Source: a virus (Duplodnaviria > Heunggongvirae > Uroviricota > Caudoviricetes). From it: a stretch of DNA of 43,701 bases. Each line of letters begins with the position of its first letter. The first letter of the stretch is position 1. Under the pieces are notes generated by a model. That model was not told where the DNA came from, ran no database searches, and worked only from the letters and a program-made list of their open reading frames with translations. The DNA is taken from the IMG/VR virus record IMGVR_UViG_2571042636_000008, positions 1 to 43,701 of that record, one strand, 5' to 3'. Shown here one piece after another: positions 28,993-35,847 of this stretch. Made by a program: the position numbers and the translations under genes.

Positions 28993-30138
28993 ATGGCACA
29001 GGGCTTACCTGTTTCCAATGTCGTTAACGTTGACGTCATCATGTCACCGGTAGCGGCAACGGGGCGAAACTTCGGTGCGCTCCTCATTTTGGGAACCTCT
29101 ACCGTTATTCCGGTTACCGAGCGCATTCGCCAGTATTCGGCCATTGAAGATATCGGCGATGATTTTGGCGTTGACTCCCCGGAATACGAAGCAGCGACCA
29201 TCTTCTTTTCACAATCACCAAAACCCACGCTGGTCTATATCGGCCGTTGGGCGAAGACGCTGGCGGAAGAAGAGGCCGGGACGGTGGAAACCTTGCTACA
29301 GGCCGTTAATGCCTGCCTTCAGTATACCAACTGGTACGGGCTGGCAATTGCCGACAGCGCCGATCTGGTTGAGGCTGACGTGATTTCCGTTGCTGCTGCT
29401 ATTGAGGCATCCAGCTTAAGCCGCATTCTGGCCGTTACCACTGCTGATGTGAATGTGCTGGTGGCCGGAAATACCGACAATATCGGCTACAAACTGAAAG
29501 CCGCTGGCTATGCCCGCACATTCTGGCAGTACAGTTCCAGCAGCAAATACGCCGCTATCTCGGCCTTTGGCCGCGCATTCACGGTGAATTTCACCGGCAG
29601 CAATACCACGATCACACTGAAGTTTAAAACCGAGCCTGGTATTACCTACGAGACGCTGACAACCGCACAGGCCGCAGCCATTGATGCCATTAACGGTAAC
29701 GTCTACGTCTACTACGCCAACGATACGGCAATTATCCAGCAGGGTGTGATGGCGAACGGTGATTTCTTTGATGAGCGGCATGGCCTGGACTGGCTGCAGA
29801 ACTACGTTCAGACCAATCTCTATAACCTGCTTTACACCTCGGCCACCAAAATCCCGCAGACCGACGCAGGCGTAACCCGGTTAATGACCAACGTCGAAGC
29901 CTCACTGGATCAGGCGGTAAATAACGGCCTCATTGCTCCGGGTGTCTGGAACGGTGGCCCGATTGGCCAGATTGAATCCGGGGATACCCTGACCAAGGGT
30001 TACTACGTCTACGCCGACGCGGTAGCTAACCAGGCTCAATCCGACAGGGAAGCGCGTAAGTCGCCGGTAATTCAGGCGGCGATCAAGCTGGCTGGCGCTA
30101 TTCATTATGGCGACGTGCAGATCAATGTGGTGCGATAA
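28993..30138 (+). CDS. Tail sheath protein (DUF3383-like)
   Basis: 381 aa; followed by tube, chaperone and tape measure; family from memory. Confidence 0.6.
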
Positions 30139-30147
30139 GGAGCGACC

Positions 30148-30591
30148 ATGAGCGGAACCTATAGTTTTATTGACGTCTCGGCATCCCTGACGGGCCCAAC
30201 CGGCAGTATCGATCTGGGCTGCGGCTCGGCGAACTCCGAAGAAGGTATTACGGTTGCGATGACCGAGGCAAAAAACACCATGACCGTCGGCGCCGATGGT
30301 GAGGTGATGCACAGCCTGCACGCCGGTAAGAGCGGCACTATCACGGTAACTTTGCTGAAAACCTCCCCGGTAAACAAAAAGCTCTCGCTGATGTACAACG
30401 CACAGAGCCTGTCCTCGGCGACGTGGGGCAATAACGTCATCGTCATTCGCAACAAAGTATCAGGTGATACCACTACAGCGCGTTCTTGTGCTTTCCAGAA
30501 GCAACCCGATCACGCTAACGCCAAAGTCGGCAATACGGTTTCCTGGGTCTTTGACTGCGGCAAGATTGATCAGCTGCTTGGGGAGTTTTAA
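30148..30591 (+). CDS. Tail tube protein (DUF3277-like)
   Basis: 147 aa with AAGGAG RBS, between sheath and chaperone. Confidence 0.6.
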   Translation: MSGTYSFIDVSASLTGPTGSIDLGCGSANSEEGITVAMTEAKNTMTVGADGEVMHSLHAGKSGTITVTLLKTSPVNKKLSLMYNAQSLSSATWGNNVIVIRNKVSGDTTTARSCAFQKQPDHANAKVGNTVSWVFDCGKIDQLLGEF

Positions 30592-30594
30592 CGG

Positions 30595-31014
30595 ATGGAA
30601 TTTGAAATCAAAGGGGTTAATTACCGAACCGCCAAACTTGACGTATTCCAGCAACTGAAGGTCAGCCGTAAGCTGCTGCCGGTGCTGGCCGGGCTCGTTA
30701 GTGAATTTTCCACGCTGAAAGCGCAGGCCGCTGCGGGTAACTCTGGTGCAGTGCTGGAAAGCGTACTGCCGAAAATTGCCGATACGCTGGCCGCGCTGCC
30801 GGATGAGGACGTTAACGCGGTGATTCATCCGTGCCTGGGCGTTGTTATGCGCCAGCATGAAAAAGGGTGGGTGAAAATTTTCGATCAGGGCGCGCTGATG
30901 TTCGACGATATCGACCTGTTCACGATGCTGCAGTTGGTGGCGCGGGTGGTCGCCGACAGCCTGGGAAATTTTTTGAAAGAACTCCCCGGCAGCGGGACGC
31001 CTACCCAGCCATAG
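30595..31014 (+). CDS. Tail assembly chaperone (short, zero-frame product)
   Basis: 139-aa ORF immediately upstream of tape measure gene. Confidence 0.6.
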   Translation: MEFEIKGVNYRTAKLDVFQQLKVSRKLLPVLAGLVSEFSTLKAQAAAGNSGAVLESVLPKIADTLAALPDEDVNAVIHPCLGVVMRQHEKGWVKIFDQGALMFDDIDLFTMLQLVARVVADSLGNFLKELPGSGTPTQP

Positions 31015-31208
31015 GTCCTGTCCTGGAATCCATGCAAGAAGGTGAGGATTTCCTGATGCGTCCGGTGGATGCCGGGCTTATCCCTTACACCGCCCTGAAA
31101 GATGGATCAGTAGACCTGGCTGATATTGCCCGTATGAATGACTGGCTGGACCTGAAAGCCGATAACGAAAACCGTATAGCGAAATGGAGAGAGGCTAATG
31201 AACGCTGA
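30595..31208 (+). CDS. Tail assembly chaperone, frameshift-extended product (gpGT-like)
   Basis: Joining the zero frame to the -1 frame at 30969-30975 gives about 204 aa; conserved chaperone-frameshift-tape measure synteny. Confidence 0.5.
30969..30975 (+). other. Putative -1 programmed ribosomal frameshift slippery heptamer T TTT TTG
   Basis: XXXYYYZ heptamer in zero frame near chaperone 3' end; the -1 frame stays open to 31208, ending at the tape-measure start. Confidence 0.55.
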
Positions 31209-33114
31209 AACGCTCAAGGACTTTCTGATCTCGCTTGGGTTCAAAGTTGATGAGGCTGGCGCCAGAAAATTCGATGCCGTCGTTGCCGGGACAACGCTTA
31301 AAGCGATTGAACTGGGCGTCAAAGTTGAGGCGGCGGCACTTTCCGTCGTTGCATTCACCGCGAAAATTGCCAGCGGTCTCGACGACCTGTACTGGGCCTC
31401 TCAGCGCACAGGCGCGACGGTGGAGGGCATTAAGCAGATTGGGTATGCGGTTAGTCAGGTTGGCGGCAGTGTCGACGGGGCCCGCGGCTCTCTCGAAAAT
31501 CTTGCCAGGTTCATGCGTAACAATCCCGGCGCTGAGGGTTTTCTGAACCGGCTGGGGGTTCAAACGCGTGATGCCAGCGGTAACATGCGGGATATGGCGA
31601 CGATCTTTACCGGCGTCGGCCAGCGTCTTAGCAGCATGCCGTATTACCGCGCGAACCAGTACGCTCAGATGCTGGGTCTGGATGAAAACACCCTGATGGC
31701 AATGCGTCGCGGTATCGGCCAGTTTAGTGGCGAATACACCGCGATGGCGAAGGCGATCGGCTATAACGCTGATGTGGCCGCCGTCAGCTCCAATAAATTC
31801 ATGACCTCGCTGCGCTTCTTTGGGCTGATGGCAGGCATGGCGCGGGATAAAATCGGCTCCAGTCTCGCTGATGGACTTGCTGGCTCTCTGGACAGGCTGC
31901 GTCGCCAGATCCTGGAAAACTTCCCGAAAATTGAAGGCGCTATAACCGGTACCGTGAAAGGCATTCTCTGGGCTGGCGAGATGGTAGGCAGGGTAATTTA
32001 CCGCCTTATTCAGCTGGGTCAGAGTATCAGCGACTGGTGGGACTCTCTTGATAAGCAGTCGCAGCAGCTGATCGAACTAATTGGAGCGCTAACCGCAGCG
32101 TGGTGGATGCTCAACCGCGCTATGCTCGCATCGCCGATTACGTGGGTTCTCGGTCTTGCCGCTGCCATAGCTTTGCTATGGGAGGATTACCAGACCTGGA
32201 AGGAGGGCGGTAAGAGCCTCATTGACTGGGGTAAATGGAAGCCTGAAGTAGACGCAGCACTGAAGATGGTCGGTGACCTGAAACAGACTGTCCTCGATCT
32301 AGGAAAAGCGCTGGCAAAGCTGCTCAATATCGACCCTAAATCCTGGTCTTTGAAATGGGATTTCAGCAACTTCATTACCCAGATGGGTGAGTTTAGCAAG
32401 ATGCTGAGTATGATCGGCGACCTGCTTAACGCTATCAAGGACGGTCGCTGGTCGGATGCTGCAAGCATTGGCAGGGCTCTTCTCAAACAAGGCAGTAACC
32501 AGCCTGATGCGCTGCCCGGCGTTTCTGACAGTGCCAATAGCGCAGCTGACTGGATAAAGGATAAGACAGGATTTGACCCGCGCAGCATAGGCCGTTTCTT
32601 CCGTGGCGAGGGGAATACGCTTGCAGATCGCAACAATAACCCCGGTAATATTCGGCCCGTAGGCGGTGGTGGCTTTCGTGCGTTTGGTTCTGCGCTGGAA
32701 GGCTGGGAGGCCATGAAAAACCAGCTCATGCGGTACTTTACTGGTAAAACGACCGGGCGCCGCCTGCAGACTATCATGGATATCGTCAGCACCTGGGCAC
32801 CTGCGGCCGATAACAACGATCCTGCCAAATATGCCCGTGATGTTGCTGGCTGGATGGGGGTATCGCCGACGGCAGCATTAAACCTGTCCGACCCCAATAC
32901 GATGGCTATGCTCATGCAGTCTATGGCCCGCAAAGAGGGGTATTCGAACTGGAATAGCCCGCTTGCCCATCAGGCTGCTGGAGCGCAGGTGAATCAGCAA
33001 AACACCTACAACATCTATGGCGGTAATGCTCAGGAAATTGGGCAGGAAGTCAGTCGCCGCCAGCTTGATGCTAATGCCAGGGTGCTGAGAAATAACCAAA
33101 CTGGAGCAGGATGA
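31198..33114 (+). CDS. Tail tape measure protein
   Basis: 638 aa, largest tail gene after the chaperone; helical N-terminal part with hydrophobic segment. Confidence 0.8.
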   Translation: MNAETLKDFLISLGFKVDEAGARKFDAVVAGTTLKAIELGVKVEAAALSVVAFTAKIASGLDDLYWASQRTGATVEGIKQIGYAVSQVGGSVDGARGSLENLARFMRNNPGAEGFLNRLGVQTRDASGNMRDMATIFTGVGQRLSSMPYYRANQYAQMLGLDENTLMAMRRGIGQFSGEYTAMAKAIGYNADVAAVSSNKFMTSLRFFGLMAGMARDKIGSSLADGLAGSLDRLRRQILENFPKIEGAITGTVKGILWAGEMVGRVIYRLIQLGQSISDWWDSLDKQSQQLIELIGALTAAWWMLNRAMLASPITWVLGLAAAIALLWEDYQTWKEGGKSLIDWGKWKPEVDAALKMVGDLKQTVLDLGKALAKLLNIDPKSWSLKWDFSNFITQMGEFSKMLSMIGDLLNAIKDGRWSDAASIGRALLKQGSNQPDALPGVSDSANSAADWIKDKTGFDPRSIGRFFRGEGNTLADRNNNPGNIRPVGGGGFRAFGSALEGWEAMKNQLMRYFTGKTTGRRLQTIMDIVSTWAPAADNNDPAKYARDVAGWMGVSPTAALNLSDPNTMAMLMQSMARKEGYSNWNSPLAHQAAGAQVNQQNTYNIYGGNAQEIGQEVSRRQLDANARVLRNNQTGAG

Positions 33115-35059: not shown

Positions 35060-35398
35060 GTGAAAATCTTCACCATCGTTTTTATCGCATTCGCATCCTT
35101 TGGGGCTACCGCCGGTGGCTTCACATCATATTGTGGACCTTACACTTTAGTAGCAAGGGAAGGTGATGTAAGCATTATCAATGGAGAGCGAGTCACCTCT
35201 CAGAAAATAAAATTATTGGGGGAGGACGGCATCAAGATAAACATGGGGATGATGCCTGCCAAAGACGGCAACAACTACGGCTTTCAGTACATCCACCGTC
35301 CTGGTAGTGAATCTCGCTTTCTGAACGTCCAGCTTCTGCAAAACAGCATGGATGCGCCGAAGATTATCGGATCCTTCCCCTGCGTCAAGGTGAAGTGA
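35060..35398 (+). CDS. Moron: small secreted (periplasmic) protein
   Basis: GTG start with GGGGA RBS; signal-peptide-like N-terminus MKIFTIVFIAFASFGATAGG; two Cys; AT-rich relative to flanking baseplate genes. Confidence 0.55.
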   Translation: MKIFTIVFIAFASFGATAGGFTSYCGPYTLVAREGDVSIINGERVTSQKIKLLGEDGIKINMGMMPAKDGNNYGFQYIHRPGSESRFLNVQLLQNSMDAPKIIGSFPCVKVK

Positions 35399-35400
35399 TT

Positions 35401-35847
35401 ATGGAATTTTTCGCAATTATCCTCTTCTTTTTGGCAATAGCCATTGTTACTAGATGGAATAACCATAAGAAAGCTAAAAAGCGGAAAGAAGAAGATAACT
35501 TTATCCATAGTATTGATTATTCTTATCGTCGTCCTGAGGTTAAATCTAAGCCTAAAAATGGTCGTAGAAGAAGCAAGGAGGAAATGCTTGCTGATGGAAT
35601 CGCATATCAAAAATTGATGGGTGATGATTTTAGAAAGTCAGCAAAAGCTACGCAAATCCAGGCGGAAAGAGTCGGATCTAAGAAATATATTTGGCGTGGT
35701 TCTGATTGCTGCCCAAATTGCGATAAGCAGAATGGGAAAACATTCTCTTGGGCAAGACCTCCAAAAACAGGTCACCCAGGAGAAGGAAAATTATGTCCTA
35801 ACGGTTACTGTCGCTGTTGGGCTGAGGTGATAATTCCGAAACCGTAA
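35401..35847 (+). CDS. Moron: membrane-anchored protein with MuF-C-terminal-like Cys/His motif
   Basis: N-terminal TM helix EFFAIILFFLAIAIV; basic linker; C-terminus YIWRGSDCCPNCD...KTFSWARPPKTGHPGEGKLCPNGYCRCWAEVIIP parallels the MuF C-terminus at 22904..23686; strongly AT-rich; terminator follows. Confidence 0.55.
   Translation: MEFFAIILFFLAIAIVTRWNNHKKAKKRKEEDNFIHSIDYSYRRPEVKSKPKNGRRRSKEEMLADGIAYQKLMGDDFRKSAKATQIQAERVGSKKYIWRGSDCCPNCDKQNGKTFSWARPPKTGHPGEGKLCPNGYCRCWAEVIIPKP

Follow-up and report, generated by a model that had tools for sequence, protein, structure and literature searches.

A probable −1 frameshift appends DUF6889 to a phage tail assembly chaperone

We analyzed a 43,701-nucleotide (nt) stretch of viral DNA, positions 1 to 43,701 of the IMG/VR record IMGVR_UViG_2571042636_000008 of a member of the Caudoviricetes (hereafter the window), and in particular its tail assembly chaperone gene (30595-31014, + strand), which is overlapped by a second open reading frame (ORF) in the −1 frame. 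An earlier note on this DNA, made from the letters alone, had read this overlap as a candidate programmed −1 frameshift, an interpretation that comparison with related sequences supports. We estimate at about 85% the probability that a ribosomal −1 slip on the chaperone mRNA yields two proteins. A minority of ribosomes would slip back one nucleotide on A AAU UUU UUG (30966-30975) and read the −1 frame to the UGA at 31206-31208. The abundant product would be the 139-amino-acid (aa) chaperone and the rarer one a 204-aa fusion ending in the DUF6889 domain, with 126-127 N-terminal residues common to both.

The zero-frame product of the chaperone gene is assigned to its function by Pfam (Phage_TAC_15, E=5.3e-35) and by PHROG 1688 ('tail assembly chaperone', E=2.1e-55), and its stop codon is the TAG at 31012-31014. 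The chaperone codons AAT (30967-30969), TTT (30970-30972) and TTG (30973-30975) place the heptamer T TTT TTG (30969-30975, + strand) in X XXY YYZ phase, that is, in the zero frame where the earlier note had located it. The heptamer does precede the chaperone stop as described, at a distance of 36 nt, so that the 40 nt given before is approximate. The earlier note overlooked that two more in-phase heptamers overlap T TTT TTG on its 5' side, so that it closes a run of three, G GGA AAT TTT TTG (30963-30975, + strand).

The −1 frame is open from 30861 to the TGA at 31206-31208 and so reaches the tape-measure start, exactly as had been claimed, overlapping the ATG at 31198 by 11 nt (ATGAACGCTGA). 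This overlap, as ATGAACGCTGA or ATGGCTGA, is kept in most of 19 diverse phages. From the slip site, the extension comprises 77 codons and the TGA (30975-31208, + strand), and the reading frames give a predicted fusion of 127 + 77 = 204 aa, in agreement with the size of about 204 aa expected beforehand. Residues 37-75 of the 77 (31083-31199, + strand) form the DUF6889 domain (Pfam PF21829, E=2.7e-20; PHROG 4364, function unknown, E=1.9e-27). The fusion found no match among PDB chains. Sheath, tube, chaperone and tape measure follow one another in this order, and with a −1 ORF overlapping the chaperone and a slippery run in phase with it, the locus reproduces the gpG/gpGT arrangement that had been recognized in the window.

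The heptamer alone is not a statistical anomaly and was rejected as such: the window contains 12 copies of TTTTTTG where 8.85 would be expected. When every window ORF of 100 aa or more was scanned on either strand, 74 in-phase heptamers were found, 8 of which open a −1 extension that is at least 50 codons long and continues beyond the zero-frame stop. Three of these 8 are the overlapping heptamers of the chaperone site; the other 5, by their coordinates, belong to ORFs that share their DNA with a longer ORF in a different frame or on the other strand. The context of the heptamer, unlike the heptamer alone, is beyond chance.

The chaperone region is 99.8% identical to 'Wanchaivirus PDP110P2' (a record without annotation), 86-93% identical to a set of Klebsiella temperate myophages that includes Mulock, and present in 56 of 5,426 complete Escherichia coli genomes. 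Mulock itself (MN098327) is 88% identical in DNA across the region and carries an identical GGGAAATTTTTTG. A tblastn search with the 204-aa fusion against 50,697 phage records matched 40 of them, all 40 as two pieces, ranging from Klebsiella and Escherichia phages to phages of Bordetella, Burkholderia, Ralstonia, Acinetobacter, Edwardsiella and Providencia at 32-40% identity. The DUF6889 part lies in the −1 frame relative to the chaperone in 19 of 19 diverse phages. This set was enlarged by 80 IMG/VR loci and 80 loci of different bacterial species to a sample of 181 loci, and the chaperone is followed by DUF6889 in the −1 relation in 179 of them, from Enterobacterales to Burkholderia and Acinetobacter. 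A single open frame runs from the slip site to the stop in 155 of the 158 unique sequences; loss of the −1 ORF among relatives, which the earlier note had named as evidence that would refute it, is not what we find. Finally, in a search of 1.84 billion representative proteins, most alignments of chaperone homologues among the matches listed end at query residue 127-133, which is the slip site.

The three exceptions to the open frame are an in-frame fusion with a seventh T (L004) and two disrupted copies (L133 and L180). Among the 155 sequences themselves, L049 is truncated where its contig ends and L177 has a deletion within the domain. In L180 (an Arsenophonus metagenome-assembled genome), L177 (Izhakiella) and L133 (Enterobacter sp. 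R1), the −1 ORF is interrupted, the cause being a stop codon, a deletion or a shift of frame within it; such breaks would be consistent with prophage decay, with assembly error as the alternative.

The −1 frame bears the marks of a translated extension. Peptides read in this frame from the slip site align almost without gaps across about nine genera and show the same order of motifs, namely xR(T/A)(P/A)..., SLPxGEDxLxRPV and then the DUF6889 core, and the extension is 75-79 codons long in 149 of the 155 sequences. Where the two frames overlap, conservation is higher in the −1 frame than in the C-terminal tail that the chaperone has in the zero frame: at position 2, Arg occupies the −1 frame in 152/155 sequences, compared with Glu in 95/155 in the zero frame. 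The segment between the chaperone stop and the ATG called by the Prokaryotic Genome Annotation Pipeline (PGAP) has codon-position entropies of 0.79/0.62/1.53 and is as periodic as the domain itself (0.72/0.58/1.32). The slip site, 5' of the PGAP ATG, marks the onset of coding periodicity in the −1 frame, and conservation reaches about 27 codons 5' of that start, back to the slip site. Within the aligned family, these comparisons establish the two-frame architecture and a coding constraint on the −1 frame that starts where the slip is proposed.

The PGAP call embodies the first competing explanation, in which DUF6889 is a separate small gene and no recoding takes place. Initiation at the ATG (31056-31058) behind the Shine-Dalgarno (SD)-like AGGTGAGGA (31040-31048, + strand) would produce a free 50-aa protein, and it is exactly there that RefSeq/PGAP starts the stand-alone 'DUF6889 family protein' WP_016244729.1 (E. 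coli SCU-308; NZ_CP053281.1 1530229-1530381, corresponding to window 31056-31208). A similar small ORF is annotated in several phage records, and the Pfam PF21829 and PHROG 4364 models, with 40 and 54 positions, are about the size of the short ORF. Among the unique relatives, however, an ATG at the PGAP position is found in 89/155 and missing in 66/155, and 47/155 have no ATG, GTG or TTG at all from the slip site to the RPV motif. A start with any SD-like motif is present in only 61/155. Moreover, the conserved SLPxGEDxL motif lies 5' of the ATG, the SD-like AGGTGAGGA coincides with the codons of the conserved G-E-D motif, and both the periodicity and the length conservation start at the slip site rather than at the ATG. 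A separate gene would also leave the synonymous freezing of the slip codons, 80 nt upstream, unexplained. In short, neither a conserved start of its own nor a constraint beginning there was found for a stand-alone DUF6889. Based on the motif, the periodicity and the missing starts, we rejected an independent small ORF as the general mechanism and consider a separate gene very unlikely to be the right account of the region; independent initiation at ATG 31056 may nonetheless add a minor extra product in the window.

Nature also provides the fusion in one piece. In one distant relative (P0258/L085), chaperone and DUF6889 form a single in-frame ORF with a homologous junction free of any homopolymer (CTG CAC GGC TAC TTC TCG TAC ACA CCG), which argues that the functional unit is the fusion. 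It is the only clean natural fusion among the single-ORF matches with both Pfam domains. On its contig (L085:1038-1664, Logan ERR10900000), the fusion is directly followed by a Dit-like gene with no tape-measure gene between them, an arrangement that might reflect a tail-like particle lacking a tape measure, rearrangement of the element or an error of assembly.

Other matches were set aside. The single ORFs P0001, P0038, P0133 and P0143 look like error-laden or frameshifted contigs and were rejected as evidence of fusion. P0002 (L004:2470-2490, Logan SRR23924998) comes from a relative of E. coli phage vB_EcoM-683R1 and has seven T instead of six, which joins chaperone and DUF6889 in one 213-aa ORF; this is either a real +1T mutant that would make only the fusion or a homopolymer sequencing error, and as the seventh T is its sole difference from its relatives we did not count it as a fusion either. 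P0153 (2,495 aa with 14 matching stretches) was rejected as a tandem-repeat assembly artefact, and P0206, with its unrelated N-terminus, looks like a chimeric contig.

We examined codon choice at the slip site by counting synonymous sites over the 155 unique relatives. The codon for Phe126 is TTT in 154/154 sequences, compared with TTC 104/TTT 42 and TTC 103/TTT 48 at two control columns of conserved Phe. Similarly, Leu127 is encoded by TTG in 136 sequences and TTA in 1, against mostly CTG at other Leu columns, and Asn125 is AAT in 143/143. Gly124 is GGA in 141/152, although GGA is the rarest Gly codon at other conserved Gly columns. The slip codons are, by these counts, frozen at the synonymous level.

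The pattern of freezing informs the choice among the three heptamers. T TTT TTN is invariant in the window's clade and in two other T-run clades, even with GGT, GAT or AGT as the preceding codon; because it stays invariant when that codon changes, the T TTT TTG site proposed in the earlier note is supported. On the other hand, a frozen GGA is required only for A AAT TTT or G GGA AAT, and A AAT TTT, one codon 5' of T TTT TTG, is also synonymously constrained. The constrained element is, on the pattern of frozen codons, best described as A AAT TTT TTG (30966-30975, + strand), an overlapping run in which either heptamer may be the one used. The alternative products would differ by one residue, ...GNFL-ERTP for T TTT TTG and ...GNFF-ERTP for A AAT TTT. 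The predicted tryptic junction peptide for a slip on T TTT TTG is VVADSLGNFLER, whereas VVADSLGNFFER would come from slippage on either upstream heptamer (A AAT TTT, G GGA AAT) or from a transcriptional +U; the zero-frame peptide is VVADSLGNFLK.

Across distant clades, the site held in common has the conserved Phe126 codon in the A site: Acinetobacter sequences have A AAT TTT ATT and Burkholderia sequences mostly C CCT TTT ATT. At the homologous codons, most distant-clade sequences have one of the canonical heptamers (X XXT TTT, T TTT TTY or G GGA AAT), and several have only the tetramer T TTT. The P-site half is degenerate in several Burkholderia-type sequences (G TCT TTT, A CCT TTT), leaving the T TTT tetramer.

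The family divides into two groups according to what follows the slip site. Downstream segments of T6/T7 sites (n=132 unique) have a mean folding z of +0.25, with 1% below −2; those of T4 sites (n=27) have a mean z of −2.43, with 70% below −2 (Mann-Whitney p=2e-15, a test that ignores phylogeny in a comparison spanning only a handful of clades). The T4 relatives have a conserved hairpin, GGGCUGCU...AGCAGCCC, about 6 nt 3' of the slip site, with one compensatory variant GGACUG...CAGUCC; no such hairpin is present in the T6 and T7 relatives. They are of the Burkholderia and Acinetobacter types, with C CCT TTT ATT or A AAT TTT ATT (L086, L088, L090, L097, L099-L101 and L182-L246).

Upstream of the slip site, the window has an internal SD-like sequence, GGGTGGTC (30944-30951, + strand), which is a candidate frameshift stimulator. 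Its duplex with the 3' end of 16S rRNA reaches −12.7 kcal/mol in the window. Averaged over 143 members of the clade, no other position from −320 to +240 pairs as strongly with the anti-SD sequence as GGGTGGTC (mean −10.96 kcal/mol, with 90% of sequences reaching −8 kcal/mol or better), and the tape-measure ribosome-binding site is weaker. Synonymous choice within it is biased as well: CGG is used for R117 in 114/139, whereas three other Arg columns have it in no more than 10 of about 150 sequences, and GTG is used for V118 in 140/153. The spacers to the three heptamers are 11, 14 (A AAT TTT) and 17 nt (T TTT TTG). The Burkholderia-like and Bordetella-like clades also have SD-like motifs, weaker putative counterparts of GGGTGGTC, at comparable spacing. 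The conserved upstream GGGUGGUC may play a dnaX-like stimulatory role and take the place of a downstream hairpin.

The second competing explanation moves the shift from translation to transcription. RNA polymerase slippage on the T6 run would add one U in some transcripts and give rise to the fusion ...GNFF-ERTP by ordinary translation. The window's clade always has a run of at least six T without downstream RNA structure, and the genomic 7-T variant described above (L004) encodes exactly such an in-frame fusion. Yet bacterial transcriptional slippage has been described on runs of 9 A or T (PMC5009743), next to which six is short. The homologous Burkholderia and Acinetobacter sites combine T4 with a stable downstream hairpin, a signature of ribosomal frameshifting, and the upstream element complementary to the anti-SD sequence fits a ribosomal mechanism. 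In addition, PMC3091744 treats the shift of phage P2, whose site has an identical heptamer, as translational. We infer that the shift is ribosomal and judge slippage of the polymerase to be just as improbable as a separate gene.

The weakest explanation, in which the −1 ORF is open by chance or a remnant in decay and the 139-aa chaperone is the sole product, can point to a heptamer that is not over-represented in the window, but the Pfam match to DUF6889, an open frame, length and protein sequence conserved down to about 30% chaperone identity, and stops or frame breaks of the linker or domain in only three loci (one of them the Arsenophonus assembly) leave it next to no probability and, as far as the alignments can tell, exclude a non-functional −1 ORF.

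Several points weigh against a ribosomal frameshift in the window. The case for it, in the window and in the relatives alike, is built from sequence comparison. The downstream stimulatory structure that the earlier note had suggested looking for did not appear: four window segments of 45-101 nt, of which three start just 3' of the heptamer and one includes it, were no more stably folded than shuffled sequences (z −0.04 to −0.77), and RNAalifold on 106-133 clade sequences gave no consensus pairs and an energy of 0.00, on which grounds such a structure was rejected for the window. GGGTGGTC is 17 nt from T TTT TTG, outside the range of 9-14 nt quoted for −1 stimulation by SD-like sequences (PMC5009743), yet it is 14 nt from A AAT TTT. 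The ATG at 31056 has a well-spaced SD-like sequence 7 nt 5' of it, with an anti-SD duplex of about −9.8 kcal/mol. The paper on Mulock makes no mention of a frameshift, and our search found no paper naming DUF6889.

Each heptamer alone is, furthermore, weak in E. coli reporters. In that system, H_HHU_UUY motifs are among the most efficient and UUG in the A site is poor (PMC4066793). The values listed by Sharma 2014 (PMC4066793, Table S3) for constructs that lack a stimulator, have those of IS911 or have the IS3 pseudoknot are 0.118%, 0.247% and 0.765% for UUUUUUG, 0.070%, 0.355% and 11.4% for AAAUUUU, and 0.07%, 0.11% and 1.05% for GGGAAAU, respectively.

Frameshifting of the G-T type is widely conserved in long-tailed phages (PMC5009743), and the window can be compared with its best-known example, gpG/gpGT of phage lambda (Levin et al. 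1993; Xu, Hendrix and Duda 2004, as summarized in PMC5009743). In both, the chaperone lies directly 5' of the tape measure, a slippery heptamer is found near the chaperone 3' end, two products have a common N-terminus, and a startless −1 ORF ends at the tape-measure gene. The window differs in its contractile tail, with sheath and tube, as opposed to the siphovirus tail of lambda, in its protein families (Phage_TAC_15 and DUF6889) and in its predicted slip on A AAU UUU UUG instead of G GGA AAG. Judged by sequence, the window site has the features of the G/GT class, namely the position at the tube and tape-measure genes, a −1 overlap without a conserved start, a conserved heptamer and a coding extension.

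The closest mechanistic precedent is E/E+E' of P2 (Christie et al. 2002, as reported in PMC3091744), a −1 shift on TTTTTTG. Like the window, P2 is an E. coli myovirus with TTTTTTG in a chaperone gene between tube and tape measure and, in that report, no downstream hairpin. The window has a longer extension (77 aa against about 51 in P2) and a longer chaperone (139 aa against 91), and its heptamer is embedded in two further overlapping heptamers, 3' of a conserved SD-like element. The Pfam scan of the window chaperone returned Phage_TAC_15 only; the likeness to P2 described here is one of gene order, heptamer and lack of a hairpin. By analogy with lambda gpG/gpGT and P2 E/E+E', the chaperone part common to both products would coat the tape-measure protein, and the −1 domain would recruit the tube protein, which would then polymerize to the measured length. 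Neither chaperone product would be expected to stay in the virion.

Closer still in sequence are two GenBank entries annotated as 'tape measure chaperone frameshift product', one from Klebsiella phage Mulock (QFG06717.1) and one from Burkholderia phage Magia (NC_070954, YP_010668111.1). Both have the same protein families in the same gene position as the window, and their frameshifts are annotation-level predictions. Magia differs from the window in having C CCT TTT with a downstream hairpin in place of the T6 run. The E. coli dnaX gene, like the window, has an internal SD-like sequence 5' of its slip site; that of the window, with its putative role, is synonymously conserved and lies 14 nt from A AAT TTT. 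In contrast to the window, with its weaker motif and no hairpin, dnaX combines A AAA AAG, a motif of high efficiency, with a strong hairpin 3' of it.

Because the strategy is the textbook G/GT one, the mechanistic novelty is small; Mulock and Magia are already annotated with a frameshift. The main consequence is a correction of annotation. In RefSeq/PGAP, Pfam (DUF6889) and PHROGs (4364, 'unknown function'), the −1 region figures as a 50-aa protein of its own; according to the comparison of relatives, DUF6889 instead forms the C-terminal domain of the chaperone's frameshift product. This DUF6889 chaperone occurs in widespread temperate myoviruses of Enterobacterales, Burkholderia, Acinetobacter and others, and the family allows a clean natural comparison between U-run sites without structure and U4 sites with hairpins.

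Putting slip sites and stimulators together, we tentatively propose, as a scenario that is less likely than not, that this chaperone family has rebuilt its frameshift signal several times. The T6/T7 lineages, including the window, would be structure-free with overlapping heptamers; the T4 lineages would have a hairpin about 6 nt downstream; and the window's clade would have an rRNA-pairing element 14 nt 5' of X XXT TTT, so that the window site would be tandem-heptamer, SD-stimulated and structure-free. If true, the family would represent a natural series on the trade-off between slippery-sequence strength and stimulator that holds a G:GT ratio fixed.

The chaperone gene belongs to a contractile-tail module on the + strand. 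The tail sheath gene (28993-30138, + strand) is identified by Pfam DUF3383 and PHROG 205 ('tail sheath', E=3.5e-128), and the tail tube gene (30148-30591, + strand; 147 aa) by Pfam PF11681 KPP10_Orf10 (alias Phage_Tube_PhiTE, E=1.4e-62), directly 5' of the chaperone. The tape measure gene (31198-33114, + strand; 638 aa) matches PHROG 2276 ('tail length tape measure protein', E=5.4e-244) and is followed by Dit-like, Pam3_gp18-like and E217_gp41-like baseplate genes. Tape-measure residues of about 468-603 match endolysin and 'tail injection transglycosylase' PHROGs, and several relatives label the whole gene as an SLT-domain protein.

The closest phage record, OZ035745.1, is labelled Wanchaivirus, a genus that the NCBI taxonomy places in Hendrixvirinae with HK106 and mEp234. 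HK106 and mEp234 are lambdoid siphoviruses. The window encodes a contractile tail with a sheath gene despite the Wanchaivirus label. The label probably stems from an early region that is lambda-like in an otherwise mosaic genome, a situation that the Mulock paper describes for Mulock. As read from an alignment, the chaperone gene of Mulock (L001, about 2270-2280) contains a perfect Chi sequence, GCTGGTGG, and the window has GTTGGTGG at the homologous position (about 30927-30934).

Two small ORFs of 112 and 150 aa lie among the baseplate genes at window 35060-35847, in an island of low G+C content (0.39-0.42 against about 0.52 around it). The 112-aa ORF has a hydrophobic N-terminus and no match in the Pfam scan; the 150-aa ORF has a Cys-rich C-terminus and a weak, sub-threshold Pfam match to Phage_Mu_F. 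The island looks like a moron-type insertion.

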